Shown here: positions 2,756 through 26,476 of the stretch, piece after piece
Numbering within the stretch: the stretch's first letter is position 1
Layout: each line of letters begins with the position of its first letter
From: Alphaproteobacteria bacterium
GTDB taxonomy: Bacteria; Pseudomonadota; Alphaproteobacteria; Rs-D84
Assembly: GCA_031549365.1 (NCBI GenBank)
Contig: JAVBPX010000013.1
Location: forward strand, 1 to 39,045
DNA: 39,045 bases
Reading direction: 5' to 3'
Made by a program: the position numbers and the translations under genes
The notes under the pieces: model-generated
What the model was told of the DNA's origin: nothing
Databases searched by the model: none
What the model saw: the letters and a program-made list of their open reading frames with translations, nothing else

Positions 2756-5125
2756 ATGACTGAGAGAAAAACATTAACTTTGGGAAAAAGCGTTAAAGTC
2801 GATTCTGTGCAATCGGCCAAGGGTGATGCTATTTTCGTTGAAAGACGTCGTAAGGTTTTATTGCCAGGCGAACAAGAATTACAAGAGCCGATAAAAAAAG
2901 CCCCTATTAATCCGCAAGAGGAAAAATTGCAGGCTGTGTTACAGGCCGCGCGCGAAAAAGAATTAGAACGTGCCAAGCAGGTTGCCGAAGAAGAAGCATT
3001 GCGTGCAAAGAGAGATGCCGAAGTTGCTGCGGAACAAGCCGAATATCAAGAAGTTCAAGAGCAATTAAAGCAGAGAGAAATTGCCAAAGAAGAAGCTGAG
3101 ACGGATGATCGTGGAGCATTGAATCATAAACCAATAGTGGCGAAAGCACATGGGGTGGTTGATGATGAAGCCGATGTCAAAAAAGACAAGAAAAAAGGGC
3201 ATAGGTCCGGTGGTTTTGATGCGTCCGGTCGTATTACAATTCGAGATATCGTTGTTAGCGATTCTGATGAAGATGAAGAAATTGCGGTTCGTGGACAACA
3301 TAGACGTCGTAGTGAGGCGGCAGCAAAACGTTTCCGTGAAAAACAAAGACAGGCTTTTCAGCCAACAGAAAAAGTTGTGCGCGAAGTTTTATTGGGCGAC
3401 ACAATTGTTGTTAAAGATTTGGCGAATATGATGGCCGAAAAAGTGGGCGTCGTTATTAAAAAATTAATGGATATGGGCGTTATGGTTTCCATGAATCAGT
3501 CAATTGATGCGGATACTGCGGAATTGATTGCGGGTGAATTTGGTGCCCCGGTTAAGCGTGTTGTTGAAATGCCATATCAAAATTTATTAGAAATTAAACC
3601 AAATTCAGAAAACATGGTGTCTAGGCCTCCGGTCGTTACTGTTATGGGGCATGTGGATCATGGAAAAACTTCGTTATTGGATGCATTGCGTTCTGCTAAT
3701 GTTGTTGCGGGTGAGGCTGGGGGAATTACTCAGCATATTGCTGCGTATGAAGTGGTTGCAAAAAATGGAAAATCGATTACGTTTTTAGATACGCCTGGAC
3801 ATGAAACCTTTTCTGCGATGCGTGCACGTGGCGCACAGATGACAGATATTGTTGTTTTGGTTGTTGCTGCGAATGATTCAATTATGCCGCAGACAATTGA
3901 AGCGATCCATCATATCAAAGCCGCCGGTGTGCCAGTTATTATTGCGATTAATAAAATTGATTTGCCAGAAGCAAATCCGAACAAGGTTAAAACCGATTTA
4001 TTACAGCATGAAATTCAAGTCGAAGATATGGGCGGAGATGTTTTGTCTGTGGATATTTCTGCGACCAAAAAAATTAATTTGGATAAATTAGAAGAATTGA
4101 TTTTATTACAGGCCGAAATGATGGATTTAAAAGCCGATCCGGATATGCCTGCGGCTGCCCAGGTTGTTGAAGCAAAAATGGAAAAAGGATTGGGCGCAAC
4201 GGCAACAATTTTAATGCGTCAGGGAACATTATCAATTGGTGATGTGTTTGTATCCGGTATGACTCATGGACGTGTTCGTGCGATTATTAATTCGAAAAAT
4301 GAGCGTGTAAAATCAATTAAACCAGGTCAGCCAGGTGTTATTTTAGGATTGGATGCTTTGCCTTTGGCTGGGGATGACTTTATCGCATTGCAAAATGATG
4401 CCCAGGCACGGGAAGTTGCAGAATATCGTGCGCACAAAGCAAAAGAAAAAGAAAATATTGCAAAAAAATCCACTTTGGAACAGTTGTTCGCAAAGGCAAA
4501 ATCAAGCGACAAGATTGTTGTGCCTGTGATTTTAAAAGCTGATGTTCAGGGGTCCGTTGAAGCGTTGCGTGATATGATTAAAAAAGTTGGATCAGAAAAA
4601 GCCAATGTTAATTTGTTGTCTGCGAGTGTTGGTGCAATTTCCGAGGGAGATATTCGTTTGGCAAGTGCTTCGAACGCTATTATTATTGCTTTTAATGTTC
4701 GTGCCGATGCCGCGGTGAAAGAAATGGCGCGTGCCGCAGGAGTGGATATTCGTTATCATTCTGTTGTTTACCACATCACAGATGAATTGAATGATATTTT
4801 GACCGGAAAATTAGAGCCAGAGCGCAAAGAAACATTTATTGGGTATGCTGACGTATTGGCTATATTCACTGTTGGAAAAGGCGTCAAAGTTGCCGGCTGT
4901 CGAGTTACAGAGGGTGTTATTCGTCGCGATGCAAACGTTCGTTTATTGCGAGATAATGTTGTTATTTACGATGGTAAAATCGGCGTATTAAAACGTGAAA
5001 AAAACGAAGTCAAAGAAGTATCTGTGGGTACTGAATTTGGTATGTCGTTTGACAAGTATAATGATTTGCACGAGGGTGATAAGGTGGAATGTTATACTGT
5101 TGAAAGTGTTAAGGCCACACTGTAA
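2756..5125 (+). CDS. infB: Translation initiation factor IF-2
   Basis: [32 protein letters not shown] GTPase motifs; IF-2 C-terminal domains. Confidence 0.99.
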
Positions 5126-5253
5126 AATCGCGTGAAAACCGGCGATTAAAAACAAGTTCCATAAAATTTTAAACACTTATGTACGTTCATGTACACCGCG
5201 TGTCTAAAATTTTATGGAATTCTTTATACTCATCCGATTTTGACGCGATTTTT
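5123..5253 (+). repeat. Long palindromic element, copy A (starts on the infB TAA)
   Basis: AAAATCGCG-TGA...TGA-CGCGATTTT outer stem; TTCCATAAAATTTTA/TAAAATTTTATGGAA inner stem; apical CTTATGTAC..TGTACACCGCG. Confidence 0.9.
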
Positions 5254-5339
5254 GGCGTTTGTTTTTTAAGATCGGTTTTATTTGTTGGGATTTTTAATTT
5301 GGGCTTTACATTTTTATGCTTTTTGTGGATGATGTTTGT

Positions 5340-5897
5340 ATGAAATATTTTTTGATTTTAGTTTCTATGTTTTTAGTTGGTTGTGGCGGAATTATGGAAG
5401 GGCCAAGGACAACCGATATAAAAGTTATCAATTTATCAAATTATGAAATGAATGTAGTTGGGTATTTTCAAGACGACAAGGGCGAAAAGAATAGGATTGA
5501 GGTTTTTGAAAAAGCCGATGAAATAGTTGGGCAAAGGTTTGAATTTATTGAGGACGGCGGGTTTAAAAATTATTATAAGTATGATTTGGGTGAGGTTTAT
5601 GAATCCCATGATAATGGTGGTTGGGGTGGATGTGCTTTTTTTGTAATTCCGCCGTTGGGGTGTTGGCCGAATTACTGGTTTTGGGATTACAATAAATTAT
5701 TTTTAGTTATTAATTTTAAAGATCAGTATGGCAATATTTGTCGAACAGTTGTGTCAGATTCAAATCGGTCGGATATCAAAATATCGTCAGGAGATGTTTC
5801 AAAAATTGATAGAAAAAAGTGGCAAGATGATATTTTTGAGCGTAAAGTGGAAATTGTTATATCAGATGATTTTAAATGTTTAGACCGAGGTGGATAA
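5340..5897 (+). CDS. Hypothetical lipoprotein
   Basis: MKYFLILVSMFLVGC lipobox signal; start moved to ATG 5340. Confidence 0.75.
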   Translation: MKYFLILVSMFLVGCGGIMEGPRTTDIKVINLSNYEMNVVGYFQDDKGEKNRIEVFEKADEIVGQRFEFIEDGGFKNYYKYDLGEVYESHDNGGWGGCAFFVIPPLGCWPNYWFWDYNKLFLVINFKDQYGNICRTVVSDSNRSDIKISSGDVSKIDRKKWQDDIFERKVEIVISDDFKCLDRGG

Positions 5898-5898
5898 T

Positions 5899-6414: not shown

Positions 6415-7161
6415 GTGGTTCGATTTTCCAAGATTAATTTAGATAAAGATTTGTTTTTTAGGTTGGAAAAACAGATTTTTGATATGGAATTGGACTGTGA
6501 TTGCGATACGTTTGGTGTGGTTAAAAGGCGTTTAATTAATCGCGAGGTTTTGACGCCAGATCAATTTTTTTATCAGGCGGTCTATGTCGTTTTGGCCGGG
6601 GGATTTTCCCAAAAAACGGCCAAGCGTAAGCATGCCGAGATTATGGAATGTTTTGGGATTGAAAATGGTTTGTCAGACGTGGGTGAAAAAAATTGCAATA
6701 ATTGCCACGGGGTCGTGACCCCTCGCAATGACAAAACGAGAAACGTTGCGGGGCCGGGGTTTGATGATTTAATTAAAATTTTTGGAAATGTGAACAAGGT
6801 TAATGCCATATTAAAATTATGGAATGGTCGTGAAAAATTTTGTTCAGAATATTATAAATTAATGGATATTAAAGCACGTTTGGATTATTTGTCGGGATTG
6901 CCGCACATTGGTAAAATTACTGCGAATCATTTGGCCAGAAATTTGGGTGAAAATGTCGTTAAATACGATATTTGGATTCAGCGTTTGGGTGTTCGAGTTT
7001 TTGGAGGCGCCGATGATATGAATTTGGTTGGTTTTCCATTGAATGATAAAATTAAAAAATATGCGGATATGGTTTTTGAAAAATTGGAAAAAGATACCAA
7101 GTATCCGAAGGGATATATTGATTTGATATTGTGGAAGGCCAGCCAGGAAAAGATCATTTGA
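6415..7161 (+). CDS. HhH-superfamily DNA glycosylase/lyase-like protein
   Basis: HhH motif LSGLPHIGKITANHL followed by KYDIW Asp; terminal IDLILW; contains an in-frame REP-like hairpin. Confidence 0.7.
   Translation: MVRFSKINLDKDLFFRLEKQIFDMELDCDCDTFGVVKRRLINREVLTPDQFFYQAVYVVLAGGFSQKTAKRKHAEIMECFGIENGLSDVGEKNCNNCHGVVTPRNDKTRNVAGPGFDDLIKIFGNVNKVNAILKLWNGREKFCSEYYKLMDIKARLDYLSGLPHIGKITANHLARNLGENVVKYDIWIQRLGVRVFGGADDMNLVGFPLNDKIKKYADMVFEKLEKDTKYPKGYIDLILWKASQEKII
6692..6733 (+). repeat. REP-like hairpin (ATTGC..GCAATGAC family) inside a CDS
   Basis: ATTGCCACGGGGTCGTGACCCCTCGCAATGACA matches intergenic copies at 22705, 26609 and 37321. Confidence 0.85.
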
Positions 7162-7288
7162 AAATCAATGAAAAGCGCAGCATTTGGCTGCGTTGTTCAT
7201 TTTGTGCCGCGGCACGTACCATATGTACGCTGGCGCGCGGTCAAAAAATTTCAAAACACAACCAACTACTACGCTTTGATTGATTTTT
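7159..7288 (+). repeat. Long palindromic element, copy B (divergent subtype; starts on the TGA stop)
   Basis: AAAATCAA-TGA-AAAGCG...CGCTT-TGA-TTGATTTT outer stem; apical CACGTACCATATGTACGCTG. Confidence 0.8.
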
Positions 7289-7310
7289 ATGTTTTGGTAA
7301 ATAAGGTGGG

Positions 7311-8504: not shown

Positions 8505-8542
8505 TTTGAATCTCGTTTTGTATGCTGTTTGTTGTCGCGCGC

Positions 8543-8571
8543 ATTATATCATAAAATTGGCTTTGGTTCAA
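8543..8571 (-). promoter_or_regulatory. Putative sigma70 promoter for the MFS gene
   Basis: Minus strand TTGAAC-17 nt-TATAAT with extended TGn -10. Confidence 0.6.
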
Positions 8572-8610
8572 GGTTTGTGGATTGCCCCTGGCGAGGCTTA
8601 ATTTCAATTC

Positions 8611-8642
8611 TTGTCGCGGAGTTATGATTCCGAGGGATGACA
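8611..8642 (+). repeat. REP-like element (..CGAGGGATGACA family)
   Basis: Shares its 3' end and partial stem with 124-170, 26571-26594 and 38723-38772. Confidence 0.65.
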
Positions 8643-8718
8643 TATAAAAAAACCCTGCATTGCAGAGTTTAGTTGATGAAATTTCCGATATCGCCATTGG
8701 CGATAGGGGGCAATAGTA

Positions 8719-9417: not shown

Positions 9418-9493
9418 GTTAATCTCCATCTTGTCAAGTGCATTATAGACAATGGTGCGTGGAAAATCCATCGAAAAATTAGGATTCTGTGAT

Positions 9494-10861
9494 ATGTTCA
9501 AAATTGCAATTTTAGGCAGGCCAAATGTTGGAAAATCAACATTATTTAATCAATTGACTCGTCGTCGTGATGCAATTGTTCACGATCGTCCGGGTGTTAC
9601 GAGAGATATTATTATTGGACAGATTGATTGGGGTGGCGTTGAAGCCGAGATTTTAGATACTGCCGGGATTGATTTAAAGATGTCTGGGGATGCGGTTGAA
9701 AAGGCCATGGCGGATCAATCCCTGTATGCTTTGAAGTTGGCGGATGCCGTGTTATTCATTGTTGATGGGCGCCATGGAGTTCATCCGGATGATGTTGCTT
9801 TGGCCAGGATGATTCAAAAATCGGGCAAGCCTGTGTTGTTGGTTATGAATAAAGCTGAATCCAAAAAGGGGACTGAATTTCAATATGATTTTTATAGATT
9901 GGGATTGGGGGATCCGAAACCATTATCTGCCGAACATCGGACGGGATTAGAGCATATTTTTGATTGGTTAAAAACAATGACTTGTAAAAAAAACGAAGAT
10001 GGTATTGATTGCGAAGAGGGTGCGGATAAACCACAACCTTCACGCCCAGTTCGTTTATCAATTGTTGGCCAGCCGAATGTTGGAAAATCAACTTTGATTA
10101 ACAGTATTGTTGGAGAAAATCGTGTGTTGGTTCATGATATGCCTGGGATTACACGTGATACTGTTTTGGTGCCATTTGTGTGGGCCGGTCGTAAGTTGGT
10201 TTTAACAGATACAGCAGGAGTCAGAAAAAAAGCAAAAGTTACGGATGATGTTGAAACAATTTCATCAATCAAAGCATTAAAAGCAATCGAGCAATCGGAT
10301 GTTATTGTTTTGGTTTTAGATGCAACATTAGGATTGGAAAAACAGGATTTAACCCTGGCCGCACGTGTTGCCGAAGAAGGAAGAATTTTAATAGTCGCAT
10401 TAAATAAATGGGATTTAATTAGTTCCGAAGAGCAGGAAGATTTATTATTCAAGTTAAAGAATGAATTTTCAAATTCATTCCATCAGATTATTAAACCAAC
10501 GATTTTGCCAATCAGTGCTATGAAAGGTACGGGTGTCAAAAGTTTAATGAAACGGGTATTCACATTATGGGATTTAACAGATAAACATCATGCGACCAGT
10601 GCGATTAATAGGGCTGTTGAAAAATTAATGGCTGCGACGCCTCCGCCTTTGTCGAAAATGAAAAAGCCGATGAAGGTTAAATTTGCGGCGCAAACAGAAC
10701 AGCGGCCAACCACAGTTACATTAAACGTAAGTGGCGCCACAGAGTTCCCAGAATCATACGAACGTTATTTGCGTAATGGATTGGCTAAAAAATTTGGCTG
10801 GGAGAATTTGGTGGTGCGTATACGCTATAAAAAATCGGAAAATCCGTACGAAAATAATTGA
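9494..10861 (+). CDS. der: Ribosome biogenesis GTPase Der (EngA)
   Basis: Two G domains (GRPNVGKS/DTAG/NKAE; GQPNVGKS/DTAG/NKWD) and a C-terminal SYERYL..L domain; start ATG 9494. Confidence 0.98.
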   Translation: MFKIAILGRPNVGKSTLFNQLTRRRDAIVHDRPGVTRDIIIGQIDWGGVEAEILDTAGIDLKMSGDAVEKAMADQSLYALKLADAVLFIVDGRHGVHPDDVALARMIQKSGKPVLLVMNKAESKKGTEFQYDFYRLGLGDPKPLSAEHRTGLEHIFDWLKTMTCKKNEDGIDCEEGADKPQPSRPVRLSIVGQPNVGKSTLINSIVGENRVLVHDMPGITRDTVLVPFVWAGRKLVLTDTAGVRKKAKVTDDVETISSIKALKAIEQSDVIVLVLDATLGLEKQDLTLAARVAEEGRILIVALNKWDLISSEEQEDLLFKLKNEFSNSFHQIIKPTILPISAMKGTGVKSLMKRVFTLWDLTDKHHATSAINRAVEKLMAATPPPLSKMKKPMKVKFAAQTEQRPTTVTLNVSGATEFPESYERYLRNGLAKKFGWENLVVRIRYKKSENPYENN

Positions 10862-10924
10862 AAATGGGCAATTAAAAACAAGTTCCCTAAATTTTTATAC
10901 TCTGCGCGTTTTGAATTATTTTCG
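10849..10924 (+). repeat. Long palindromic element, copy C (internally deleted; overlaps the last der codons)
   Basis: CGAAAATAAT-TGA...TGA-ATTATTTTCG outer stem; AAAACAAG and TTATACTC retained, apical arm missing. Confidence 0.8.
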
Positions 10925-11746: not shown

Positions 11747-11888
11747 GGGCGACAGTGTAGCGGGTTTTTAAACAAATTGCAAGTGTAGTATAAAAATGTT
11801 GATTTAGGGTGGCGATTAGTGTAGGGTGATCATAGTTAATTTGGATATTAAATAACAAAGGGTCGCGTTGCGACAAGTTTATTAGATT

Positions 11889-11914
11889 GGATTTCAGCCG
11901 ATGCTGGAATGACA
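11889..11914 (+). repeat. REP-like hairpin (GGATTTCAGC..GCTGGAATGACA)
   Basis: 25 of 26 nt identical to 37388-37413. Confidence 0.85.
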
Positions 11915-11935
11915 TAATAGATAAGGGGAAGGATT

Positions 11936-12465: not shown

Positions 12466-14073
12466 ATGGTTAAAGTATTGGAAAAATCAGGTGCGGCGAC
12501 TCCGCAAAAGTCGGTTATTAATTGGGGCCCATTTTGGTGGTTTTTGTTGTTCTTTTCATTGACTTGGTTAATTTATGGAACTTTTTTTCAGACCAAGCCT
12601 GTTGCCGAAGAAGTTCAAAAAAATGTCGAGATGTCGATGGATTTATCAAATGTTGCACGGGTTAATTTAGAGAGCTCGGTGGATGCAATTACAGTTCAAG
12701 GATTACGTGTTAGCGATGTTGCTTTGAAACATTATTTTGAAAATCAGGGTGAAAATGAGCCTATTAAATTATTGGCAGGAGAAAAAGATTTTGTCGAGGT
12801 TGGGTTTTTATCATCGAACACAAATGTGCCAGAAGTTACAACAAAGTGGAATGTTGTTGCGAAATCGTCCAACAGTATCGAAATGAAATATGTAAATTCA
12901 GCAGGGGTTCAATTTACACGTTTTGTTACGGTTGGGGAAAATTATGTAGTATCAATTCGTGATGTGGTTTCAAACAGATCCAAGGCCGATATTGCTGTGT
13001 TGCCGTATGCCCGTGTTGTTCGATTTGCTGATTCAAAAGATGGCGCAAAGTTGGCGGTTAGTCAGGGCGGAATTGCGAATGTTGATTCAAGTATTGAACG
13101 TGAAAGTTGGTCCAGAATTGTTAAAAAACCACGCGTTTTTGAAGGCGCAGCAGGATTCGTTGGGTTTACAGATCAATATTGGCAGACAATTGTTTCAGTC
13201 GATTCGTTGGGCCAAACAATTCGTATGAAACAACGCAATGACGAATTATTCCAAGCAGATGTTCAGGCCGAAGCTGTTGTTATTAAAGCGGGCGAAACAC
13301 GTGAATTGAGTGCCAATGTTTTTGCCGGACCAAAATCGCAAAAGATTTTAAAAGAAGCTGCGACCGTTATGGCTGGTGTTGATATGACCATGGATTATGG
13401 TTGGTTTTTCTTTCTGTCGCGACCATTTTTATGGGCAATGACTGCGTTAAATACTTTGGTTGGAAATTATGGAATTGCGATCATTATTTTGACTCTGATT
13501 TTGCGTATTTTAATGTATCCACTGACTAAAAAATCATATAAATCAATGGCCGCTATGAAACAATTACAGCCAGAGATGAAGCGTATTCAAGAAAAATATG
13601 CAAATGATAAAATGCGTATGCAGCAAGAAATGATGTTGTTATATCAACGTACAAAAATTTCTCCGATGGGCGGATGTTTGCCGATGTTGTTACAGATCCC
13701 AATATTTTTTGCGTTATATAAAGCTTTGGTGATTTCTGTTGATATGAGGCACGCAGGTTTTTTATGGATGCCGGATTTGTCAGTGGCTGATCCAACAAGC
13801 ATAGTTAATTTGTTTGGATTATTACCATTTGCCATTCCAGCATGGATGCCTGCGTTGGGGTTGTTGCCAATATTGATGGGTATTACAATGTGGTGGCAAC
13901 AAAAAATGCAAAGCGGTAATTTGGGCGATTCCCCAATGCCAGGTATGTGGATCATGAAATGGTTGCCGGTGATATTTGTATTTTTCTTTGCCGGATTGCC
14001 AGCGGGATTAGTGTTGTATTGGACGGTATCGAATTTGTTGGTTATATTACAACTGAAGTTCTTTAACAAATAA
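12466..14073 (+). CDS. yidC: Membrane protein insertase YidC
   Basis: Periplasmic domain, DYGW, NYGIAII, GGCLPMLLQIPIFFALY, PAGLVLYW motifs. Confidence 0.98.
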   Translation: MVKVLEKSGAATPQKSVINWGPFWWFLLFFSLTWLIYGTFFQTKPVAEEVQKNVEMSMDLSNVARVNLESSVDAITVQGLRVSDVALKHYFENQGENEPIKLLAGEKDFVEVGFLSSNTNVPEVTTKWNVVAKSSNSIEMKYVNSAGVQFTRFVTVGENYVVSIRDVVSNRSKADIAVLPYARVVRFADSKDGAKLAVSQGGIANVDSSIERESWSRIVKKPRVFEGAAGFVGFTDQYWQTIVSVDSLGQTIRMKQRNDELFQADVQAEAVVIKAGETRELSANVFAGPKSQKILKEAATVMAGVDMTMDYGWFFFLSRPFLWAMTALNTLVGNYGIAIIILTLILRILMYPLTKKSYKSMAAMKQLQPEMKRIQEKYANDKMRMQQEMMLLYQRTKISPMGGCLPMLLQIPIFFALYKALVISVDMRHAGFLWMPDLSVADPTSIVNLFGLLPFAIPAWMPALGLLPILMGITMWWQQKMQSGNLGDSPMPGMWIMKWLPVIFVFFFAGLPAGLVLYWTVSNLLVILQLKFFNK

Positions 14074-14201
14074 AAACCATTGAAAACGCATCACTTTTAA
14101 ACAAGTTTACCGTTTTTCAGAACCCTTATGTATGTTTGTATACACCCCGGGTCCTGAAAAACGGTAAATTCTTTATAATTAATACATTTTGAATGGTTTT
14201 A
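14071..14201 (+). repeat. Long palindromic element, copy D (starts on the yidC TAA)
   Basis: AAAACCAT-TGA...TGA-ATGGTTTT; inner TTTACCGTTTTTCAG/CTGAAAAACGGTAAA; apical CCTTATGTATG..TATACACCCCGG. Confidence 0.9.
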
Positions 14202-14520
14202 ATAATCGCGTGAAACCGACCCCGGAATGAATTAATTTTTGAATGGTAATGATAAAAATTTATGAATTCCCGGTCGTTACCGACGGGCAAGCGGTGCAAG
14301 CGTTAATTCAGATTTGACATAGTCGAAAATGCGCCCTTGGGATCAACGAGCCCATCCAATCATAGATTGAGGGTTCTATTACATAAGACAAAACATTTGG
14401 TTGATAGAATATACAAAGAGTCTGTTATGGAAAAAGAGGCCCAGCATATTGGAGAGTTTGTAAAGAGAGAGGTTCCGATTATTATTAAATCCCGTTTGGA
14501 TGAGGGGCGTTTAAAATAAT

Positions 14521-19041: not shown

Positions 19042-19173
19042 ATGAAAATTTTAAGTTCTTTGAAAGGTTGGAAAAAACGCGGAAAATTGAAACAAATTCG
19101 CCGTGGAAAACAGGTTTTGTTGATTGATCCGGCTAATCCAAAATTCAAAGCCAAGCAAGGCCAGAAAAAATAA
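19042..19173 (+). CDS. rpmJ: 50S ribosomal protein bL36 (Cys-free type); absent from the ORF track
   Basis: Hand translation MKILSSLKGWKKRGKLKQIRRGKQVLLIDPANPKFKAKQGQKK; SD AGGGG. Confidence 0.92.
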   Translation: MKILSSLKGWKKRGKLKQIRRGKQVLLIDPANPKFKAKQGQKK

Positions 19174-19301
19174 AATCGCGTGAAAACGGGCGATTAAAAA
19201 CAAGTCCCCCAAATTTTTAGACACTTGTGTATTTCTGTATATACCGCGTGCCTAAAAATTTGGGGGATTCTTTATACTCATCCAGTTTTGACGCGATTTT
19301 A
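19171..19301 (+). repeat. Long palindromic element, copy E (starts on the rpmJ TAA)
   Basis: TAAAATCGCG-TGA...TGA-CGCGATTTTA; inner TCCCCCAAATTTTTAG/CTAAAAATTTGGGGGA; closest to copy A. Confidence 0.92.
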
Positions 19302-19405: not shown

Positions 19406-20032
19406 ATGAAAAAAGTTTTGGTTTTATTATGTGGGTTGTTAATGGCGGGATGTGTTTCCAGTTATCAGACCCCATCACGCGATGTTTGGGATTCTTTGTT
19501 GCGCGGGGCGAGCTTTGGCATGATGTCGGAAACTGCCAAGGAAGCAAAAAAACCAATGTTTTTAGATAATGGTGGAACCGCGTTGAAGCAGGGCGAATCG
19601 CATTTATATATGATTCAGTTGGAAAAAGAATTGGCCGATACTTTGCGTAAACCGGGGACCACGGTTCAACGTGTTGGGCCAGATGTTTTGGTTGTTATGA
19701 TAAGGGATGTTTTCATGGATCCAAATGCGCCGGATTTTTCAGACCAGGGTACCGAGGAATTACAAAAATTGTCTGCGATTTTGAAAAAGCAAAATAAAAC
19801 ATTTATCGAAATTACAGGATACACCGATAATTTAGGTCAAATGGATGCGAATCAAGCAGTTTCGTTTGATATGGCAAAGCGCGTTGCAATATTTTTTGCC
19901 AAGCATGAAATAAGGCCGGTTCGTTTATTTGTCCAAGGTCGAGGCAGCACCCGACCAATTGCTGATAATGCGACGGAAGTTGGGAGGCGGATGAATAGGC
20001 GGATAGAGATTCGGATTTCCCCCGTTTTATAA
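19406..20032 (+). CDS. OmpA-family outer-membrane lipoprotein (YiaD-like)
   Basis: LMAGC lipobox; IEITGYTD, GRGSTRPIADN, GRRMNRRIEI OmpA_C motifs. Confidence 0.9.
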   Translation: MKKVLVLLCGLLMAGCVSSYQTPSRDVWDSLLRGASFGMMSETAKEAKKPMFLDNGGTALKQGESHLYMIQLEKELADTLRKPGTTVQRVGPDVLVVMIRDVFMDPNAPDFSDQGTEELQKLSAILKKQNKTFIEITGYTDNLGQMDANQAVSFDMAKRVAIFFAKHEIRPVRLFVQGRGSTRPIADNATEVGRRMNRRIEIRISPVL

Positions 20033-20160
20033 ATTTGCATGATAATGCGCGACTGAAAACAAGTTTATCGTTTTTCAAAACCCTTATGTATGTTTATATA
20101 CACTGCGGGCCTTGAAAAACGATAAATTTTTTACATTCATCACATTCTGACGCAAATTTT
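20030..20160 (+). repeat. Long palindromic element, copy F (starts on the OmpA gene TAA)
   Basis: AAATTTGC..TGA...TGA..GCAAATTT; inner TTTATCGTTTTTCAA/TTGAAAAACGATAAA; apical CCTTATGTATG..TATACACTGCGG. Confidence 0.9.
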
Positions 20161-20867: not shown

Positions 20868-21703
20868 GCAAGGTTCAAAATTTACCACCTGTATCCGAAA
20901 TGATGACACAGTATTCTGTGTTTACAAAAAAGTCGTTGGGGCAGCATTTTTTATTCGATTTAAATATCACAAACAAGATTGCAAAGAGTATTCCAAATAT
21001 TTCCGATATGCATATTATTGAAATTGGGCCGGGACCTGGTGGATTGACCAGATCGTTATTAATGGCGGGCGCACGGCATGTTACGGTGGTTGAAAAAGAC
21101 GATACAATGTTGCCGTTATTAAATGCAATCCGGGATGCTTCGGATGGGCGGATGGATATTGTTATTGCGGATGCGTTAAAAGTTGGTTCAGAATTTTACA
21201 AAAATATACCAGGGCCGCGCGCAGTGTGCTCGAATTTGCCATACAATGTTGGGACTGAATTATTGGTGCAATGGTTGCATCATATTTTGGATTTTGATTC
21301 ATTGACTCTGATGTTTCAAAAGGAAGTTGCGGAACGGATTGTTGCGAATGTTGGTGATAATGCCTATGGCCGTTTGGCGATTTTGTCAGATGTTGTGGCA
21401 GAGTCAGAAAAATTATTTGATGTGGATCCGAAGTGTTTTACCCCGCCTCCAAAAGTGATGTCCAGCATTGTTCAGGTCAAACCAAAGGCGGATCCGTTGA
21501 ATGCGAATGATTTAGCAAAATTGGAAAAATTAACTGCGACATTATTTCAAAACAGGCGCAAGATGATACGTGGTTCATTAAAAAAATATCATGGTGCAGA
21601 AGATGCGATTAAGTCGGTTGGTTTGTCAGGGACCGAGAGGCCCGAGGAGTTGGGGTCGGCGATGATGGTTGAGTTGGCCAAAGTGTTGAAAACCAACGCT
21701 TGA
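20864..21703 (+). CDS. rsmA: 16S rRNA dimethyladenosine transferase RsmA/KsgA
   Basis: KKSLGQHFL, EIGPGPGGLT, NLPYN, MFQKEVAERI, PPPKVMS. Confidence 0.98.
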   Translation: MSKVQNLPPVSEMMTQYSVFTKKSLGQHFLFDLNITNKIAKSIPNISDMHIIEIGPGPGGLTRSLLMAGARHVTVVEKDDTMLPLLNAIRDASDGRMDIVIADALKVGSEFYKNIPGPRAVCSNLPYNVGTELLVQWLHHILDFDSLTLMFQKEVAERIVANVGDNAYGRLAILSDVVAESEKLFDVDPKCFTPPPKVMSSIVQVKPKADPLNANDLAKLEKLTATLFQNRRKMIRGSLKKYHGAEDAIKSVGLSGTERPEELGSAMMVELAKVLKTNA

Positions 21704-21804
21704 AAACAAGTTTTTTAAATTTTAGAACCTTATGTACGTTTATGTACACCGCGGCTCTAAAATTTAAAAAATTCTTACCAATCATTTGATTTTGAACGCT
21801 TTGG
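21678..21804 (+). repeat. Long palindromic element, copy G (overlaps the last rsmA codons and stop)
   Basis: CCAAAGTGT-TGA...TGA-ACGCTTTGG; inner TTTTTTAAATTTTAGA/TCTAAAATTTAAAAAA; apical CCTTATGTAC..TGTACACCGCGG. Confidence 0.88.
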
Positions 21805-21920
21805 GTATAACAATTTAAATTGTATGTTTGTTATTTGTTTCTGTTTTTTATCCCGGTGATTGCCGGGGCATTTTATTTTGTGATGCAAAATAAAATGGGG
21901 GAATTAATTTTTATATTGTT

Positions 21921-22038
21921 GAGATTGTTGCGCTTCGCTTGCAATGACATTTGTGTTGCGTTGTAATGGTTTGTTTTAGTGGATCCTCTGGCTGCGTTTC
22001 CTCCTTTGTTAAAACTATGGTGGACAGGCAGAATGACA
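21921..22038 (+). repeat. Pair of REP-like hairpins ending ATGACA
   Basis: GAGATTG..GCAATGACA (21921-21949) and TGGATCC..GGTGGACAGGCAGAATGACA (21980-22038, homologous to 26745-26803). Confidence 0.75.
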
Positions 22039-22070
22039 TTTAATTGCAGCGTTTCGCCAAAGTAGGTTTA

Positions 22071-22412: not shown

Positions 22413-22448
22413 GGTTGTTCGATTTGGTTTTTGATTGTGGTTCTGTTG

Positions 22449-22746
22449 GAAAATTTTTGTCACGGAAAAATCATTTATGATTTTTCAAAATTTTCATAGG
22501 TTGGGATTAAGGTTGGCATGGATTTAATTTATTTTTGTTTTTGGTTATCTGGTTTTATTGTGATTGTTCGTAAAATTGCTGTTGTAATTGTTTTTATTAC
22601 TGGATCCTCTCGGCTGTGCCTCAGGATGACCAAGGATTAAGGTTTGTTTTGATTTTATTTAAGTTATGAAATGTTTTCATGGTTGTTCGATTTGGTTTTG
22701 TTTAATTGCAATGATTGCCACGGAGCCTTGGCTCATCGCAATGACA
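22449..22746 (+). repeat. Mosaic repeat cluster
   Basis: TGTCACG hairpin 22449-22495, TGGATCC..CAGGATGAC 22601-22630, 31-bp duplication 22669-22699, ATTGC..GCAATGACA 22705-22746. Confidence 0.8.
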
Positions 22747-22757
22747 AATAAAAAACA

Positions 22758-23042: not shown

Positions 23043-23260
23043 TTTACTGCCTTTAATTTTTTTAAGATTGCAACGGATTCATCGATATAGTCAATTGCGC
23101 GGTCGCGGGCGGATTTTAGGGCCTCGCACTGTTGTGTTAGGATGGCAACTTCTAAATCCGTCTGTTTTTGCATGCCGTTTTGGGTGTCGCGTAGGCGCAA
23201 AATCCCGTTTTCAATGTTGTCAAGTTCGTTATAAATTTGGTCAAGTATTGTTGTGTTCAT
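23039..23260 (-). CDS. Short coiled-coil protein upstream of zapA (ZapB/ZauP-like)
   Basis: 73 aa heptad pattern; ATGA overlap with zapA. Confidence 0.65.
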   Translation of the reverse strand: MNTTILDQIYNELDNIENGILRLRDTQNGMQKQTDLEVAILTQQCEALKSARDRAIDYIDESVAILKKLKAVK

Positions 23261-23361
23261 TTGTAAATAGTCCTTGAAATTTCATCGTTATATGTATAGA
23301 GTTTAATGGATTTCAAAATAATGTCAAATGGATATATTTTGAGGTTGGTGTTTAGTTCTGA

Positions 23362-23494
23362 GGAGAACATTTTGTCACGGAAAATTTGGTAAACAAATTT
23401 TCGAAATGTTCTTTTGGTTTGAATTAAGACTGGTGTGGAATAAATTAATTTAATTGCAAAGATTGCCACGGTGTCGTGATGCCCGAGCAATAAC
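23362..23494 (+). repeat. TGTCACG-bulge hairpin plus a degenerate ATTGC REP-like hairpin
   Basis: 23362-23415 identical to 37136-37189; 23453-23494 resembles 6692-6733. Confidence 0.9.
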
Positions 23495-23515
23495 AATGAT
23501 AAAAAAGGATTTAGG

Positions 23516-24232
23516 ATGAGGCCGAGTGCAAGACAAAACAATCAATTGAGAAAGGTTAGTTTCGAGGTTAATGTTAATCGGTATGCCGAGGGATCGTGTT
23601 TAATTAAAATGGGAAATACCCATGTTTTATGTACTGCGTCCATTGAAAACGGGCGTCCGACTTGGAAACGTCAACAGGGTTTAGGCGGCGGTTGGGTTAC
23701 AGCCGATTATGCGATGTTGCCGCGCGCAACGCATGTTCGACGCGGTCGCGATTCGAACAAGACCGATTTTCGTGCCGTTGAGATCAAAAGATTAGTTGGG
23801 CGCGCATTACGTTCGGTTGTTGATTTGGATGTTTTGGGCGAACGTCAGATATTTATTGATTGCGATGTTTTACAGGCCGATGGTGGAACGCGTTGTGCGT
23901 CCATTACTGGCGGATTTGTTGCGATGTATTTGGCGTGTGAAAAGTTGGTTAAATGTGGTGAAATGCGCAAAAATCCAATAACACATTTTTTGGCTGCAAT
24001 TTCTGTTGGCGTTCACAATGGCAATGTCGTTATCGATTTGGATTACGATGAAGATTGCCATGCGGAAGTTGATGCAAATTTCGTTGTAGCAGACGGAGGT
24101 GCATTGGTTGAAGTGCAGGCTACGGGTGAATCAAAACCCTTTACAGGGGAACAAATGGATGCTATGCTGAAATTGGCAAAAGACGGCGTGGCCGCGTTAA
24201 TTAATTTACAAAAACAAGTAGTAGAAGGATAA
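23516..24232 (+). CDS. rph: Ribonuclease PH
   Basis: MRPSAR..QLR, AEGSC, GWVTADYAMLP, DCDVLQADGGTRCASITG, EVQATGE. Confidence 0.98.
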   Translation: MRPSARQNNQLRKVSFEVNVNRYAEGSCLIKMGNTHVLCTASIENGRPTWKRQQGLGGGWVTADYAMLPRATHVRRGRDSNKTDFRAVEIKRLVGRALRSVVDLDVLGERQIFIDCDVLQADGGTRCASITGGFVAMYLACEKLVKCGEMRKNPITHFLAAISVGVHNGNVVIDLDYDEDCHAEVDANFVVADGGALVEVQATGESKPFTGEQMDAMLKLAKDGVAALINLQKQVVEG

Positions 24233-24236
24233 AATC

Positions 24237-24917
24237 ATGGCAAACGATAAAAAAGTTAAAAAAAGCATTGCTGAACACCAAGAAGATGCGTTGTATCGTG
24301 AAATTTGGGAAGAAGTTCATGCCCAAAAAACGTATGATTTTGTTAAAAAACATGCGAAATTATTAATTGGTTTGGCGGCATTCATTTTATTGTTGGCCAT
24401 TGGAAATCAATTGTTAAATCATTATAAAACTGAAAATGCGAAAAAAGATGCGTTGGCTTTTGAATCTGCAATGGTTACTGTGGCCGATCGTCAGGCTGAT
24501 TCCGCGCAGATTATGTTGAAAAAATTGGGGAATAAATCATCGTCTGGGATGGGTGATATTGCAATGTATCAATCCGCCATGTTGTATTTGGAAAAAGGGC
24601 AAAAAGATGCCGCAATGGATCAGTTGCAAAAATTAGCAAAACATGGAAATACACGTGATTTTACGCATTTGGCGACAATTCGTTTGGCGTTATTAAAAGC
24701 TGATTCGATGAGCGGTTCCGCGCTAGAAAAATTTTTATCGCCGACGCTGTCGCGCAGATCGCCTTTTTATTATACATCAATGATGTTGGTTTCGGCAAAG
24801 TATGTGTCAGAAGATAACAATGTTAAGGCCGAAGCTTGGTTGAAAAAAATTGTTAATGATGACGATGCCCCGAAAATTATTTCTGCGCATGCGGAAACAA
24901 TGTTGGCCGGAATGTAA
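24237..24917 (+). CDS. YfgM-like TPR membrane-anchored protein
   Basis: REIWEEV N-terminus, one TM, TPR-like helices; directly upstream of bamB. Confidence 0.8.
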   Translation: MANDKKVKKSIAEHQEDALYREIWEEVHAQKTYDFVKKHAKLLIGLAAFILLLAIGNQLLNHYKTENAKKDALAFESAMVTVADRQADSAQIMLKKLGNKSSSGMGDIAMYQSAMLYLEKGQKDAAMDQLQKLAKHGNTRDFTHLATIRLALLKADSMSGSALEKFLSPTLSRRSPFYYTSMMLVSAKYVSEDNNVKAEAWLKKIVNDDDAPKIISAHAETMLAGM

Positions 24918-24940
24918 TTAAATTTATTTGGAGAGGGTTG

Positions 24941-26230
24941 ATGAAAAAAATTGCTTTGGCTTTGGTTGCAGGATTTTGGTTGGTTGGGTGTTCATCCCCA
25001 GATCCAATTTTGCCCGGAGTGCGTGAACCCGTATTCCAAGAAAGCGTTGTTCAAATTGACAGCAAAACAATTGAAAATTTTCCGCCAAAGACTGATACAA
25101 AAATTGTTCGGTTTCCAAATAATACCGCGCATTATGCTGTTTCAGTTATTACAAAAAAAACATTGCCAAAGTTTGAGCGCGATTGGTTTAGATCAATTGG
25201 TTCAGGATTTAACAGCAAGTCGAATCATATAAGTCAGCCTGTGGTTGGGAATGGTATTTTTGTTACTTCGGATTCCATTGGGAATGTGCGTGTTTGGGAT
25301 TTAAATACAGGGGTTAGATTGTGGGAACATCATGAAAGAACCAAAGCGTTTGCACCAGGGGCTCGCGTCCAATTGTTTAATGATGTTTTGATTGAAACAA
25401 AAAATGATGGCGAAATAATTGCCTTTGATTTAGAAGCTGGGAAAGTTTTGTGGGAAAAAAATGTAAAGGTTCCATTACATGGTCCGTTATCAGAAGAGCA
25501 AAATGGTTATACGTACACCGTATCCGAAGGAAACGAATTATATCAGATCAATATTAAAAATGGCGATGTCAAAAAAGTATTTTCAGGATTCCCAACAACG
25601 TCCAAGGTTATTGGGACTGCCGGCGTTGCTGTTGATAAACATTTAATTTATTTGGGTTTGTCGACTGGCGAAGTTTTATGTTTTAACACATCCACAAATC
25701 AAACAGAATGGGTTCGCGGAGTTTATCGTTCAAACATTATTACGGGCGGATATCCATTAACAGATATTTTGGGCAATGTTGTTTCCGATTCCAGTTCTGT
25801 TTATGCGACTGGGTTGGGTGGCGAATTGGCTTGTTTAAACAAGGCGACTGGGCAAAAGCAATGGACTGTTCCGATTGCGTCCGCGCAAGCAATGTGGGTG
25901 ATGGAAAATATTGCATGGGCAGTTTCAACAAACCAAGATTTATATGCAATTGATTTGAAAAAGGGTGGGATTGTTTATATGACACCATTATCCGATGGTG
26001 AAGATTCAATTATGTTTTATACCCCGATTTTGATTTCAAATAATGGACAATATCAATTGTGGGTTTTTGATAATCATGGGTCGGTTACAATTGTTGATGC
26101 GCGTGATGGCAAGATTTTAGGGCGTCGCGAATTGACCAGTTCCAAGTTGGCCACGGCGCCGGTTGTTGCAGACGGGAAAGTAGAGGTAGTTACAGAGTCA
26201 GGTACATGGATGCAGTTTTCAATTGAGTAA
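24941..26230 (+). CDS. bamB: PQQ-like beta-propeller lipoprotein, BamB-like
   Basis: LVGC lipobox, LPGVRE motif, repeated DL.TG..LW blades; yfgM neighbour. Confidence 0.8.
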   Translation: MKKIALALVAGFWLVGCSSPDPILPGVREPVFQESVVQIDSKTIENFPPKTDTKIVRFPNNTAHYAVSVITKKTLPKFERDWFRSIGSGFNSKSNHISQPVVGNGIFVTSDSIGNVRVWDLNTGVRLWEHHERTKAFAPGARVQLFNDVLIETKNDGEIIAFDLEAGKVLWEKNVKVPLHGPLSEEQNGYTYTVSEGNELYQINIKNGDVKKVFSGFPTTSKVIGTAGVAVDKHLIYLGLSTGEVLCFNTSTNQTEWVRGVYRSNIITGGYPLTDILGNVVSDSSSVYATGLGGELACLNKATGQKQWTVPIASAQAMWVMENIAWAVSTNQDLYAIDLKKGGIVYMTPLSDGEDSIMFYTPILISNNGQYQLWVFDNHGSVTIVDARDGKILGRRELTSSKLATAPVVADGKVEVVTESGTWMQFSIE

Positions 26231-26352
26231 AATCAATGAAAACGGCCATCTAGGACGTTTTCTTGTTCAAAATCCTCGGTTTCGTATGTTAATATACGCG
26301 CCATCGGATTTTGAAAAACAAAACTCCTATATGACTCGTTTTGATTGATTTT
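26228..26352 (+). repeat. Long palindromic element, copy H (subtype of B; starts on the bamB TAA)
   Basis: AAAATCAA-TGA-AAACG...CGTTT-TGA-TTGATTTT; inner TTCAAAATCC/GGATTTTGAA; apical CGTATG..TATACGCG. Confidence 0.82.
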
Positions 26353-26476
26353 CGGATGGTGTGAGAACAGCGACTGGAAACAAGTTTTTAAATTTTTCGA
26401 CCCTTATGTACCACTATGTATACCGCGGGTCAAAAAATAAAAGAACCCACCCAATCATCGCATTTTGAAATGATCG
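26353..26476 (+). repeat. Long palindromic element, copy I (tandem, degenerate outer stem)
   Basis: GCGACTGGAAACAAG, apical GACCCTTATGTACCACTATGTATACCGCGGGTC, CAATCATCGCATTTTGA. Confidence 0.85.

Follow-up and report, generated by a model that had tools for sequence, protein, structure and literature searches.

A structured repeat anchored at stop codons, a probable small palindromic element of a Rickettsiales-like alphaproteobacterium

Small palindromic repeats and stable mRNA structures have been described at the 3' ends of bacterial genes. In the available excerpts of the respective sources, the termini of GTAG-type REP sequences frequently provide flanking ORFs with their TAG stop (PMC3733652), and the elements QMITE1 and QMITE2 reach 1-50 bp into the 3' ends of genes, to which they contribute stop codons (PMC5896051). 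According to the accessible part of another study, stable structures located directly after stop codons (ribosome termination structures) are widespread, occur preferentially at terminal genes and shield translation from re-initiation (PMC7518266). Furthermore, Correia and ERIC hairpins change what becomes of an mRNA when they lie in its 3' UTR, as excerpted in PMC10969869, and Correia/NEMIS elements are, in the portions available, often co-transcribed with neighbouring genes and contain a central protein-binding region (PMC2229807, PMC10969869).

The element considered here lies on a whole contig of 39,045 bp (the window) from an uncultured Rickettsiales-like alphaproteobacterium, whose host proteins group with those named 'MAG Rickettsiales / Alphaproteobacteria bacterium'. 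The window holds one element family with nine copies, all on the plus strand, and these nine copies on a single contig constitute the entire sample. Six copies are canonical (A, D, E, F, G and I), two belong to a diverged subfamily (B and H) and one is internally deleted (C). A covariance model, R1, was built from the six canonical copies and applied, unfiltered, to the entire window; in the list below, the R1 scores of the six best copies are partly circular because the same six built the model.

Copy A, canonical: 5123..5253, plus strand, 131 nt, R1 146.2 bits; starts on the TAA stop of infB (offset 0); left TGA 5133, right TGA 5241, core 105 nt.
Copy B, variant subfamily: 7159..7289, plus strand, 131 nt, R1 29.1 bits (E 5e-4); on the TGA stop of a 248-aa gene (offset 0); left TGA 7169, right TGA 7277 (position set by eye).
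Copy C, internally deleted: 10849..10924, plus strand, 76 nt, core 50 nt, R1 42.5 bits; der runs 10 nt inside and ends at the left TGA 10859-10861 (offset 10).
Copy D, canonical: 14071..14202, plus strand, 132 nt, R1 129.4 bits; starts on the TAA stop of yidC (offset 0).
Possible decayed tandem remnant after D: 14203..14282, no strand assigned; weak, left out of the copy count.
Copy E, canonical: 19171..19301, plus strand, 131 nt, R1 139 bits; on the TAA stop of a 43-aa ORF (offset 0), presumably rpmJ (bL36).
Copy F, canonical: 20030..20160, plus strand, 131 nt, R1 135.7 bits; on the TAA stop of an OmpA-family lipoprotein gene (offset 0).
Copy G, canonical: 21677..21805, plus strand, 129 nt, R1 128.9 bits; rsmA runs 24 nt inside and ends at the internal TGA 21701-21703 (offset 24).
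Copy H, variant subfamily: 26227..26351, plus strand, 125 nt, R1 40 bits; bamB TAA at 26228-26230 (offset 1 from the R1 start, 0 from the start first described).
Copy I, canonical, most decayed: 26352..26478, plus strand, 127 nt, R1 93.7 bits; abuts H, no stop codon.

All nine copies claimed by a preliminary description of this DNA were recovered in place, both by inspection of the sequence and by the R1 scan, in which minus-strand matches were only weaker mirror images of the same nine loci and the best unrelated match in the window reached 16.8 bits (E 0.22). Their assignment to a single family holds in that all of them score with R1, with the qualification that B and H are a diverged subfamily and C is a shortened copy. 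Pairwise identity is 63-85% among the canonical copies, 63-79% between these and B or H, and 76% between B and H. The fixed length of 131 bp reported earlier applies to A, E and F, and also to B, whereas D measures 132 nt. Copy I directly adjoins H and touches no stop codon, as expected of the tandem ninth copy first described. The remnant after D resembles the 5' end of A and E over its first 14 nt and continues as a separate hairpin; its R1 score, obtained at 14211-14282 of the minus strand, is no more than 16.8 bits (E 0.22).

The stop codon of a plus-strand gene is touched by eight of the nine copies, in agreement with the initial claim. Copies A, B, D, E and F start exactly on its first base, as does H by the coordinate of the preliminary description, and the remaining two are entered by their genes for 10 nt (der) and 24 nt (rsmA). 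The probability of at least six exact starts among eight is 3e-14 under random placement and 1e-6 when sites are limited to stop-like triplets in non-coding or 3'-terminal space; placement relative to stop codons within the window is therefore non-random at P 1e-6 or lower.

The host proteins are intact and not truncated by the copies. The C-terminus of IF-2 (...KATL) coincides with that of all 29 homologs listed, and the 248-aa protein next to copy B, a homolog of which one source names 8-oxoguanine DNA glycosylase, shares its final alignment column with the two homologs closest to it. Der has the C-terminus NPYENN, where its closest representative (P0241) has NPYEN, and RsmA ends in ...ELAKVL plus KTNA, where the homologs P0124-P0128 have ...ELAS(V/A)L at equal distance from the conserved GTER.EEL motif. 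In addition, the C-terminal domain model of YidC is matched up to residue 534 of 535, the YiaD-family model up to residue 204 of 208 in the OmpA-family lipoprotein of copy F, and the BamB model up to residue 426 of 430; curated models stop 1-9 residues short of the C-terminus in IF-2, Der, YidC, the OmpA-like protein, RsmA and BamB.

The host genes belong to the core set and sit in conserved operons (rimP-nusA-infB, der, yidC and rsmA, for example). Such hosts speak against the copies being integron-type attC sites that close gene cassettes, for which structure over sequence, the position after ORFs, the single orientation and one better-folding strand could be cited. The attC sites, at about 60-140 bp, are also similar in size to the element. 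This identity is further contradicted by the R''/R' box consensus, which occurs in 0/9 copies on either strand, and by the lack of an integrase gene in the window, and it is considered extremely improbable.

In full copies, a core of about 105 nt, near-constant in length (101-106 nt) across all eight, is bracketed by an invariant TGA on each side; outside these lie two arms of 8-10 nt that vary between copies and are complementary to each other. The TGA had been described as a G-G mismatch within the outer stem, and was found instead to be a 3-nt direct repeat present at both junctions in 9/9 copies (the right TGA of B by eye). Likewise, the conserved segments taken to be unpaired are mostly A·C appositions, which the complementary strand pairs through G·U. 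The claim that stems differ between copies and yet stay paired is well founded: among the six canonical copies only, paired cells amount to 93.7% against 75.5 +/- 1.7% in shuffles, and both-sided changes are found in 27/46 pairs against 14 +/- 2.3. Neither covariation value was matched by any of 500 shuffles, and slid controls gave 5-11 such pairs.

The sense strand folds with z values of -5.7 to -9.5 in five of the six canonical copies (copy A: -46.3 kcal/mol, z -9.5) and of -8.4 in H. In copy I, z is only -1.65 and the outer arms pair poorly; the outer stem is degenerate only in this unanchored copy, and C has retained a perfect one (10/10 pairs) despite its internal deletion. The stem is followed by 3-5 T at the 3' ends of the copies. 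As ssDNA, both strands fold (z -5 to -9), and the complementary strand is more stable than the mRNA-sense strand in eight of the nine copies, reaching -58.5 kcal/mol in copy A; the top strand carries 40 A·C appositions against 19 G·T.

These properties bear on a host cis-regulatory RNA motif of the 3' UTR that is selected gene by gene, recognised by a protein or RNase, and non-mobile. Strong covariation together with the conserved AAACAAGT (7/7 canonical-type copies) and apical motif (6/6 full canonical copies), the strict stop-codon register and the G·U at the inner-stem base in 5/6 copies are consistent with such a motif, and post-stop structures are general in bacterial genes in the excerpted account (PMC7518266). 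Any purely sense-RNA reading is weakened, however, by the better fold of the complementary strand, and identities of 76-85% behind unrelated genes point to copying rather than convergence, as do the tandem pair, the shortened copy and the mosaic modules. Minus-strand genes are without copies, and no Rfam family matches. This explanation is considered improbable.

Copies are carried by 8/19 plus-strand genes and 0/16 minus-strand genes (Fisher 0.003), and the plus strand is G-rich throughout the window; copies are oriented with the DNA strand in addition to the gene. The other repeats of the window are equally one-sided, with intergenic ATGAC found 16 times and GTCAT once.

Conservation is lowest at the termini of the element: identity is 41% in the arms and 75-78% in the inner modules. 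Copies A and E are alike in arms and flanking modules (10/10, 23/24, 22/24 and 9/9) and in only 15/23 positions of the apex, whereas D and F are alike in the inner stem (18/20) and apex (20/23) and in only 4/10 and 2/9 positions of the arms. The apex of A matches that of G in 22/23 positions, and B and H have 8-nt arms in common. From copy to copy, the modules have discordant histories, a pattern that repeats exchanging parts would produce. In both C and G, the 3' arm is complementary to native coding sequence, the 5' arm of G, which codes for the last native RsmA residues, being native and that of C partly so. Since the termini are least conserved and the 5' arm is host coding in these two copies, the inserted unit may be smaller than the 131 bp of the preliminary description. 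No target-site duplication outside the arms is consistent among the nine copies.

A smaller unit could mean that only the core of about 105 nt was mobile and was inserted strand-specifically beside a TGA in the loop of a host gene-end palindrome, either as ssDNA (HUH/Y1, IS200/IS605-PATE-like) or by a site-specific recombinase. The arms would then be host DNA, the TGAs would represent the target plus the element end or a duplicated crossover core, and stop registration would arise because host hairpins begin at the stop codon. The TGA direct repeat, the near-constant core, the native 5' arms with 3' arms pairing at 9-10 of 10 positions, the unpaired arms of copy I away from a gene end, and the likeness of D and F in the interior and not in the arms all agree with this scheme. 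So do the confinement of all nine copies to the G-rich strand, the one-sidedness of the other repeats, which points to a strand-linked process, and the folding of both strands as ssDNA. Nevertheless, identical arms in A and E behind unrelated genes, the arms common to B and H, and a third A/E-like left end after D indicate that, in at least these cases, arms were inherited with the element. Furthermore, unoccupied TGA-centred palindromes do not exceed chance (5 against 1.9 +/- 1.3 in shuffles), with none at a gene end; the hypothetical empty sites would be weak AT-rich hairpins (-3.3 to -11.4 kcal/mol); and no transposase, integrase or Y1 gene lies within the 39,045-bp window. Mobility of the core alone is regarded as rather unlikely.

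The explanation favoured, with modest confidence, is a new non-autonomous family of small palindromic repeats of the MITE/RPE/Correia class that serves as a gene-end hairpin. Its repeat nature is supported by the unrelated host genes, the tandem pair H/I, the deleted copy C and the mosaic modules. By copying at the DNA level, the element would have reached the 3' ends of unrelated genes, in a single orientation on the G-rich, presumably leading, strand, with the A-rich left end abutting or supplying the stop codon or, in two copies, with an internal TGA providing it. Starting as it does at the stop, the element would make up the first ~130 nt of the transcribed 3' UTR, where a long hairpin with 3-5 U behind it is predicted to form. 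Retained copies would act as gene-end structures, with insulation against translation re-initiation, termination or 3'-end protection as possible roles; such use would explain why the outer stem is kept in stop-flush copies and lost in the one unanchored copy.

Several observations count against this favoured explanation. Its variable termini are the opposite of what a classical MITE shows, the better antisense folding and A·C excess are not predicted by a sense-RNA function, and the absence of copies from all 16 minus-strand genes is not predicted by a pure gene-end function. The 3' arms of C and G that complement native coding sequence are unexplained by insertion of a ready-made 131-bp unit, and the lack of an enzyme gene in the window, the lack of a consistent target duplication, the small number of copies and the result of the genome scan described below weigh in the same direction. 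The interpretation first proposed, a protein-recognised 3'-UTR RNA or an enzyme-inserted ssDNA hairpin, was right in that the family is real, structure prevails over sequence, copies are tied to stops and no described family matches; the strand-linked orientation, better antisense fold and variable termini alter that picture.

Beyond the window, Rfam gave no gathering-level match for the element. The only Rfam match at E up to 1, a plant miRNA, is spurious, its 36.5 bits lying below the gathering score of 117. No match was found in the plasmids searched, and a pattern scan of 185,579 species genomes returned only 13 single matches in unrelated taxa and no family match; R1 gave an E of 1 or less for only one of these 13. 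The only outside match that does not look like chance, element L007 of Alysiella crassa, has a similar apical motif and 21.5 bits, a score inflated because L007 had been selected by the pattern used for the scan. We take L007 to be Correia-like.

On the best reading, the element's class is that of RPE, Correia/NEMIS, ERIC, QMITE2 and REP, with RPE compared by description only. In the excerpts available, RPE and Wolbachia palindromic elements are likewise 100-150-bp multicopy palindromes of Rickettsiales-type alphaproteobacteria and can touch coding sequence (PMC3767692, PMC10969869). The available descriptions nonetheless set the element apart from RPE: RPE-1 to RPE-3 lie in frame within ORFs, as 0/9 copies do here, the ATGAC motif of RPE-4, -6 and -7 is lacking in 8/9 copies, and stop-codon anchoring does not feature in these descriptions. 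Other repeat families in the window match the RPE description better than the nine-copy element does.

Correia/NEMIS elements of Neisseria, of about 105-155 bp, similarly form an end-to-end long hairpin in the accessible portions of the sources (PMC2229807, PMC10969869). They differ in that their terminal inverted repeats are conserved and a TA duplication is present, where the present termini are most variable and a TA duplication is not consistent, and in occurring in both orientations, mostly upstream of genes, rather than in one orientation at gene 3' ends. REP/BIME sequences with RAYT, as excerpted, share the location downstream of unidirectional or convergent genes, termini that often give the flanking ORF's stop, and G·T pairs in stems (PMC3733652). 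At 20-40 bp they are much shorter than the ~130 nt found here; the GTAG tag occurs in 0/9 copies, the window has no RAYT gene, and just 3/9 copies have a CGTC tag, top-strand GACG, close to their 3' end.

QMITE2 of Coxiella burnetii, as partially documented, spans 150-190 bp, lies mainly in 3' UTRs with a 1-10 bp gene-end overlap, and has flanking repeats of 7-11 nt that vary between copies like the present arms (PMC5896051). Those repeats are direct, whereas the arms here are inverted; QMITE2 has the GTAG motif, which no copy here contains, and only a minority of QMITE copies touch stops, in both orientations. Ribosome termination structures, in the excerpted text, are also stable mRNA structures starting a few nt from the stop (PMC7518266), but they are neither a sequence family nor repeats. 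SPRITE is described, in the part available, as a repeat with a terminator-like hairpin (PMC10969869), a role that is only predicted for the copies here from their stem and 3-5 T. Altogether, with its exact anchoring at stop codons, the element may be seen as a stricter counterpart of the small mobile palindromes described in Rickettsia, Neisseria and Coxiella.

The nine-copy element family proved to be real, as the preliminary description had proposed: all nine stretches align, and R1, a covariance model trained on the six best copies (A, D, E, F, G and I), finds them again in a search of the whole window with filters off. On the + strand, the six model-building copies scored 94–146 bits, and the copies outside the training of the model were recovered at 42.5 (C), 40 (H) and 29.1 bits (B, E 5e-4). 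Matches on the minus strand were weaker mirror images at the same loci, and the top unrelated match reached 16.8 bits. The copies measure 125–132 nt, except for the internally deleted copy C. Relative to shuffles, the sense-strand RNA fold lies at z -5.7 to -9.5 in A, D, E, F, G and H, is moderate in B (z -3.8), and is not significant in the deleted C and the decayed I (z about -1.6). The covarying stems likewise held up, with double-sided changes in 27 of the 46 consensus pairs of the six canonical copies, a number never matched by shuffles; this control is limited, as the six copies are relatives of one another and themselves supplied the structure. In these copies, 93.7% of paired cells are complementary, compared with 75.5 +/- 1.7% with partners shuffled; the observed pairing, double changes and covariation score were each reached by 0 of 500 shuffles, and sliding the partners by 1–3 columns lowers the double-change pairs to 5–11.

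Every copy (9/9) follows the order arm, TGA, core, TGA, arm', and the arms form 8–10 base pairs in all copies but I. The cores are as follows.

Core lengths of the nine copies, all on the + strand
Copy A (host infB): core of 105 nt
Copy B (host gene of 248 aa): core of 105 nt; right TGA at 7277, placed by eye
Copy C (host der): core of 50 nt
Copy D (host yidC): core of 106 nt
Copy E (host rpmJ): core of 105 nt
Copy F (host OmpA-like gene): core of 105 nt
Copy G (host rsmA): core of 103 nt
Copy H (host bamB): core of 102 nt
Copy I (tandem after H): core of 101 nt

The G-G mismatch attributed earlier to the outer stem arises from a directly repeated trinucleotide, in which G faces G with T-A and A-T paired around it. 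The two TGAs may represent a crossover core, a 3-bp duplication of the target, a feature of the structure itself, or a target together with a right end that matches it. Mean pairwise identity is 41% in the arms, 57% in the inner stem, 68–75% in the modules joining arm to inner stem and 78% in the apex, so the ends are the least conserved part of the element, and the two hypervariable modules (arms and inner stem) are the two perfectly paired ones. Similarity among copies is discordant between modules. For instance, A and E have nearly identical arms and flanking modules, with each inner arm matching at 15/20 positions and the apex at only 15/23; D and F show the reverse pattern, with interiors alike and arms unlike; and A and G agree at 22/23 apical positions and only 2/10 arm positions. 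The modules therefore have different histories, as would be expected of recombining or converting repeats and not of independently evolving regulatory sites. Other arrangements were also considered. B and H do not represent an inverted canonical interior, the same orientation aligning better, and a search downstream of C for its rearranged remainder yielded just weak local alignments (scores 24–38). Right after D, the stretch 14203–14282 begins with 14 nt like the A/E left end, followed by a separate hairpin (R1 16.8 bits), and may be a decayed second tandem copy.

The anchoring to stop codons was confirmed. In A, B, D, E and F, element and stop codon begin at the same base, and H starts flush with the bamB stop by the coordinate of the preliminary description. 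The der gene enters C by 10 nt and ends at the left TGA of the element, rsmA enters G by 24 nt and ends at an internal TGA, and copy I, a tandem copy, has no stop codon of its own. All eight stop-touching copies (8/8) are in strict stop-codon register, six flush and two internal. With insertions placed at random, in both orientations, throughout non-coding DNA and the terminal 27 nt of genes, the probability of at least six exact registrations in eight is 3e-14, and it is 1e-6 if the available sites are restricted to the TAA, TGA and TAG triplets found there (n=587, with 35 real stops). In the literature searched, no repeat family with strict stop-codon registration is described. Judged from their alignments, the host proteins are intact: the IF-2 C-terminus (...KATL) coincides with the ends of 29 of 29 homologs examined (30 of the 120 listed), the 248-aa host protein shares its final alignment column with its two closest homologs, the remaining five in the alignment extending 2–3 residues further, and curated models extend to within 1–9 residues of the C-terminus in six hosts.

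The two internal registrations bear directly on the origin of the arms. RsmA ends ...GTERPEELGSAMMVELAKVLKTNA, and in a gap-free alignment its homologs P0124–P0128 end ...GTER.EELSPTKFAELAS(V/A)L and P0123 one residue later (6 of 49 homologs examined). The 5' arm of copy G consists of the RsmA codons A-K-V-L, with which the 3' arm pairs at 9/10 positions, one of them G·T. Similarly, Der ends ...NPYENN and its closest representative ...NPYEN; the 5' arm of copy C holds the Der codons Y-E-N-N, and its 3' arm pairs at 10/10 positions. Taken together, the alignments and the pairing indicate that in C and G the downstream arm complements native coding sequence, which the insertion of a ready-made 131-bp palindrome does not predict. 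Three explanations of these arms remain: host hairpins that received an inserted core; a 3' arm rebuilt from the 5' flank, e.g., by intra-strand template switching, a process that perfects quasi-palindromes; and selection restoring the stem. The first corresponds to the main rival to the family reading developed below, namely that only the core is mobile and enters, strand-specifically, a TGA offered by a host gene-end hairpin. Host-derived arms would account for the codon complementarity in C and G, yet A and E have identical arms behind infB and rpmJ, and B and H share arms behind two other genes. In addition, unoccupied TGA-centred palindromes occur in the window at chance level (5 against 1.9 +/- 1.3, with 0 at gene ends), and any hairpin formed at the hypothetical empty sites would be weak (-3.3 to -11.4 kcal/mol); we consider this rival rather unlikely. 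A bolder proposal is a target-reading hairpin installer, in which the core of ~105 nt would enter by the TGA on one strand and the outer stem would take its sequence from the final ~10 nt of the host gene, or be corrected to match them, so that each copy would clamp its own stop region. It is a long shot. If true, it would represent a way of inserting or converting sequence that has not been described among bacterial repeats, and a mobile source of structures that insulate translation termination.

The orientation of the copies follows the DNA strand as well as the gene. All nine (9/9) lie on the + strand; a copy is carried by 8 of 19 + strand genes and 0 of 16 minus-strand genes (Fisher 0.003), and, among genes ending a transcription unit with room downstream, by 8/11 and 0/8, respectively (Fisher 0.002). 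In the five convergent intergenic regions that bear a copy, it is flush with the + strand gene in 5/5. Other repeats of the window are equally one-sided. These are short repeat families ending in ATGAC(A/C), located as follows.

Short repeats of the ATGAC(A/C)-ending families
139–178
6692–6740
8601–8650
11881–11915
21990–22046
22590–22661
22705–22754
23453–23501
26609–26657
26736–26812
33592–33640
37380–37414
38794–38865

Between genes, the + strand reads ATGAC 16 times and its complement GTCAT once, neighbourhoods of minus-strand genes included, so these repeats are strictly one-sided. Since both the copies and the other repeats are one-sided, orientation is tied to the DNA strand, presumably through replication. 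Element position is in turn linked to the stop of the co-oriented gene, and strand and gene constraints both act. GC skew was positive in 25 of 25 sliding 3-kb windows (+0.07 to +0.36), and the + strand is therefore taken as the leading-strand sequence, replication direction being read from skew. The skew is unusually strong, and positive even over minus-strand operons.

The two strands also differ in how they fold. The conserved segments, described earlier as unpaired, are paired in the complementary strand, which forms a near-unbroken antisense hairpin. The antisense strand folds better in 8/9 copies (for example, -58.5 vs -46.3 kcal/mol in A, -58.2 vs -43.2 in D and -59.8 vs -43.6 in B), and DNA parameters give the same antisense advantage in A and D, and none in G. 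The union of both folds comprises 420 Watson-Crick appositions, 19 top-strand G·T and 40 top-strand A·C, and several of those that are not Watson-Crick are common to most canonical copies, e.g., C·A at element positions 21/110 and G·T at 34/98. As a C-to-T bias on the G-rich strand predicts the opposite excess, the A·C asymmetry belongs to the family. G·U polarity was rejected as a proof that the structure forms in the sense RNA, the opposite polarity prevailing (40 vs 19). The fold asymmetry speaks against simple selection of structure in mRNA; it fits a palindrome that was already imperfect in the founder copy, a folded form of the bottom strand, or the survival of copies with a weaker hairpin on the lagging-strand template.

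The window is a complete contig of 39,045 nt with a G+C content of 39.5%. The nearest IF-2 homologs share 72–80% identity across the C-terminal 390 residues and include entries named "MAG: Alphaproteobacteria bacterium" and "Rickettsiales bacterium"; the best relatives of RsmA and Der are no closer than 56% and 52%, respectively. We conclude that the organism is an alphaproteobacterium that is uncultured and poorly sampled. NCBIfam (35 ORFs) and Pfam (18 ORFs) served to name the genes, which include the following.

Genes and gene groups of the window named by NCBIfam and Pfam
rimP-nusA-infB
der
lspA-yidC
mreC/mrdA/rodA
OmpA-family lipoprotein
recR-rsmA
rph
bamB
ruvA
yebC-ruvC

The ORF at 19042–19173 we take to be bL36 (rpmJ). 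Between 26866 and 36127 lie six consecutive minus-strand ORFs (132–493 aa) and a divergent 788-aa ORF, without an NCBIfam or Pfam match. Further repeats accompany these genes. A ~110-nt family (23339–23450 and 37113–37224, also 22424–22469; 89% identity over 96 nt) lies upstream of rph and yebC. The window ends carry 135-nt direct repeats (1–135 and 38910–39044) of 98% identity, each followed by an ATGAC-type repeat; they probably mark an assembly break at a repeat, and the inexact end overlap does not demonstrate circularity. Furthermore, the 248-aa protein (6415–7161), a homolog of which is named thermostable 8-oxoguanine DNA glycosylase in one source, contains an in-frame insertion of ~30 residues near 6655–6750 that is missing in 7/7 aligned homologs (216–229 aa) and coincides with the ATGAC-type repeat at 6692–6740. 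This insertion looks like an RPE-style protein-coding palindrome. The ATGAC motif is reported as typical of RPE-4, -6 and -7 (PMC3767692).

On balance, we lean towards reading the element as a non-autonomous member of the RPE/Correia/QMITE/REP class of palindromic repeats, one that has spread to gene ends on a single strand; the sample comprises nine copies from a single contig. Bacteria commonly carry small palindromic repeats; to our knowledge, how they move and why they cluster at gene ends is mostly unknown. Several precedents are reported: the stop codon is often provided by the terminus of a REP (PMC3733652), and QMITEs overlap the 3' ends of genes and supply stops (PMC5896051). Stem-loops in intergenic DNA are described as clustering within 50 nt past stops (PMC1590033), and stable structures starting a few nt from the stop as widespread and insulating against re-initiation (PMC7518266). 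Repeats in 3'-UTRs are also reported to alter mRNA fate via RNase III or RNase E (PMC10969869, PMC2229807). In the present family, the 3' arms end in 3–5 T in 9/9 copies, these T's pairing with the run of A at the 5' end, and in all copies but A and E the base of the stem is rich in A and T. The outer stem is kept in every gene-touching copy, the truncated C included, and is lost only in the unanchored I. Together, the stop-flush start, the 3' T's and the outer stem kept at genes hint at selection for a gene-end hairpin. A terminator consensus scan left the elements uncalled, save for internal or flanking mini-hairpins at 7174–7194 and 5242–5259. A promoter consensus scan found scattered, non-homologous matches in A, C and D and no promoter common to the copies, with 50 promoter-type sites overall compared with 62 in shuffles, and inspection by eye for IHF and CcrM sites gave nothing consistent. 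The stems are kept by paired changes as the ends vary, and two copies pair with the last codons of their hosts; possible mechanisms include a strand-specific ssDNA transposase, a recombinase, and templated palindrome correction. The question touched here is whether reduced, AT-rich genomes with few classical terminators recruit mobile hairpins to insulate translation or transcription.

Comparison with described families places the element near several of them. Rfam holds no match at gathering score (0), the sole match at E up to 1 being MIR837 over copy D (36.5 bits against a gathering score of 117). Among 72,556 plasmids, blastn of A and B returned only chance matches of 32–47 nt (E 0.1–0.3). 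The likeness to RPE lies in multicopy hairpin palindromes of the 100–150-bp class in a Rickettsiales-type host. Unlike RPE-1 to -3, which lie in frame in ORFs, 0/9 copies lie within an ORF, the overlaps being solely with 3' ends, and the ATGAC motif of RPE-4, -6 and -7 is present in 1/9 copies; the family is set apart from RPE by description, not by consensus sequence. A scan of 185,579 species genomes for the left motif plus the apical motif gave 13 single matches at chance level in unrelated taxa, with no Rickettsia genome among these full-pattern matches. R1 supports only one of the 13 pattern-selected loci, and weakly: L007, in Alysiella crassa (21.5 bits, E 0.026), a locus chosen by the pattern itself. 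It is a hairpin of ~105 nt (1954–2062, minus strand) with terminal inverted repeats and TA flanks, which looks Correia-like, and it has the AAACAAGT motif and the apical motif in common with the window family. Having been picked by the search pattern, L007 is a lead and not evidence. Correia/NEMIS elements have conserved terminal inverted repeats, whereas the arms of the window family, at their low identity, are its least conserved module; nor do the flanks show a consistent TA, the Correia target duplication, or any other direct repeat beyond the arms. REP/BIME palindromes are 20–40 bp long, compared with 131 nt for the window elements; of the REP tags, GTAG is found in 0/9 copies and GACG (the CGTC tag) near the 3' end in 3/9. 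No RAYT/Y1, transposase or integrase gene was found among the 35 ORFs searched with NCBIfam and the 18 searched with Pfam over the 39 kb. Integron attC sites carry the boxes R'' (RYYYAAC) and R' (GTTRRRY) at their two ends; 0/9 copies contain them on either strand, and a cassette array was rejected in view of hosts such as infB, der, yidC, rpmJ, rsmA and bamB in conserved contexts, in a window that lacks an integrase. IS200/IS605-derived (PATE-like) elements are uniformly oriented with respect to the replication strand, and 9/9 copies lie on the positive-skew + strand; PATE-like elements also insert 3' of a fixed short target, which they do not duplicate, and have a related right end, comparable to the TGA at both core junctions in 9/9 copies, which fits PATE-like insertion and equally a 3-bp duplication or a structural mismatch. 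Altogether, the kind of repeat is known, and what sets this family apart is its strict stop register (8/8), its conserved interior with variable ends, and arms that can be host codons.
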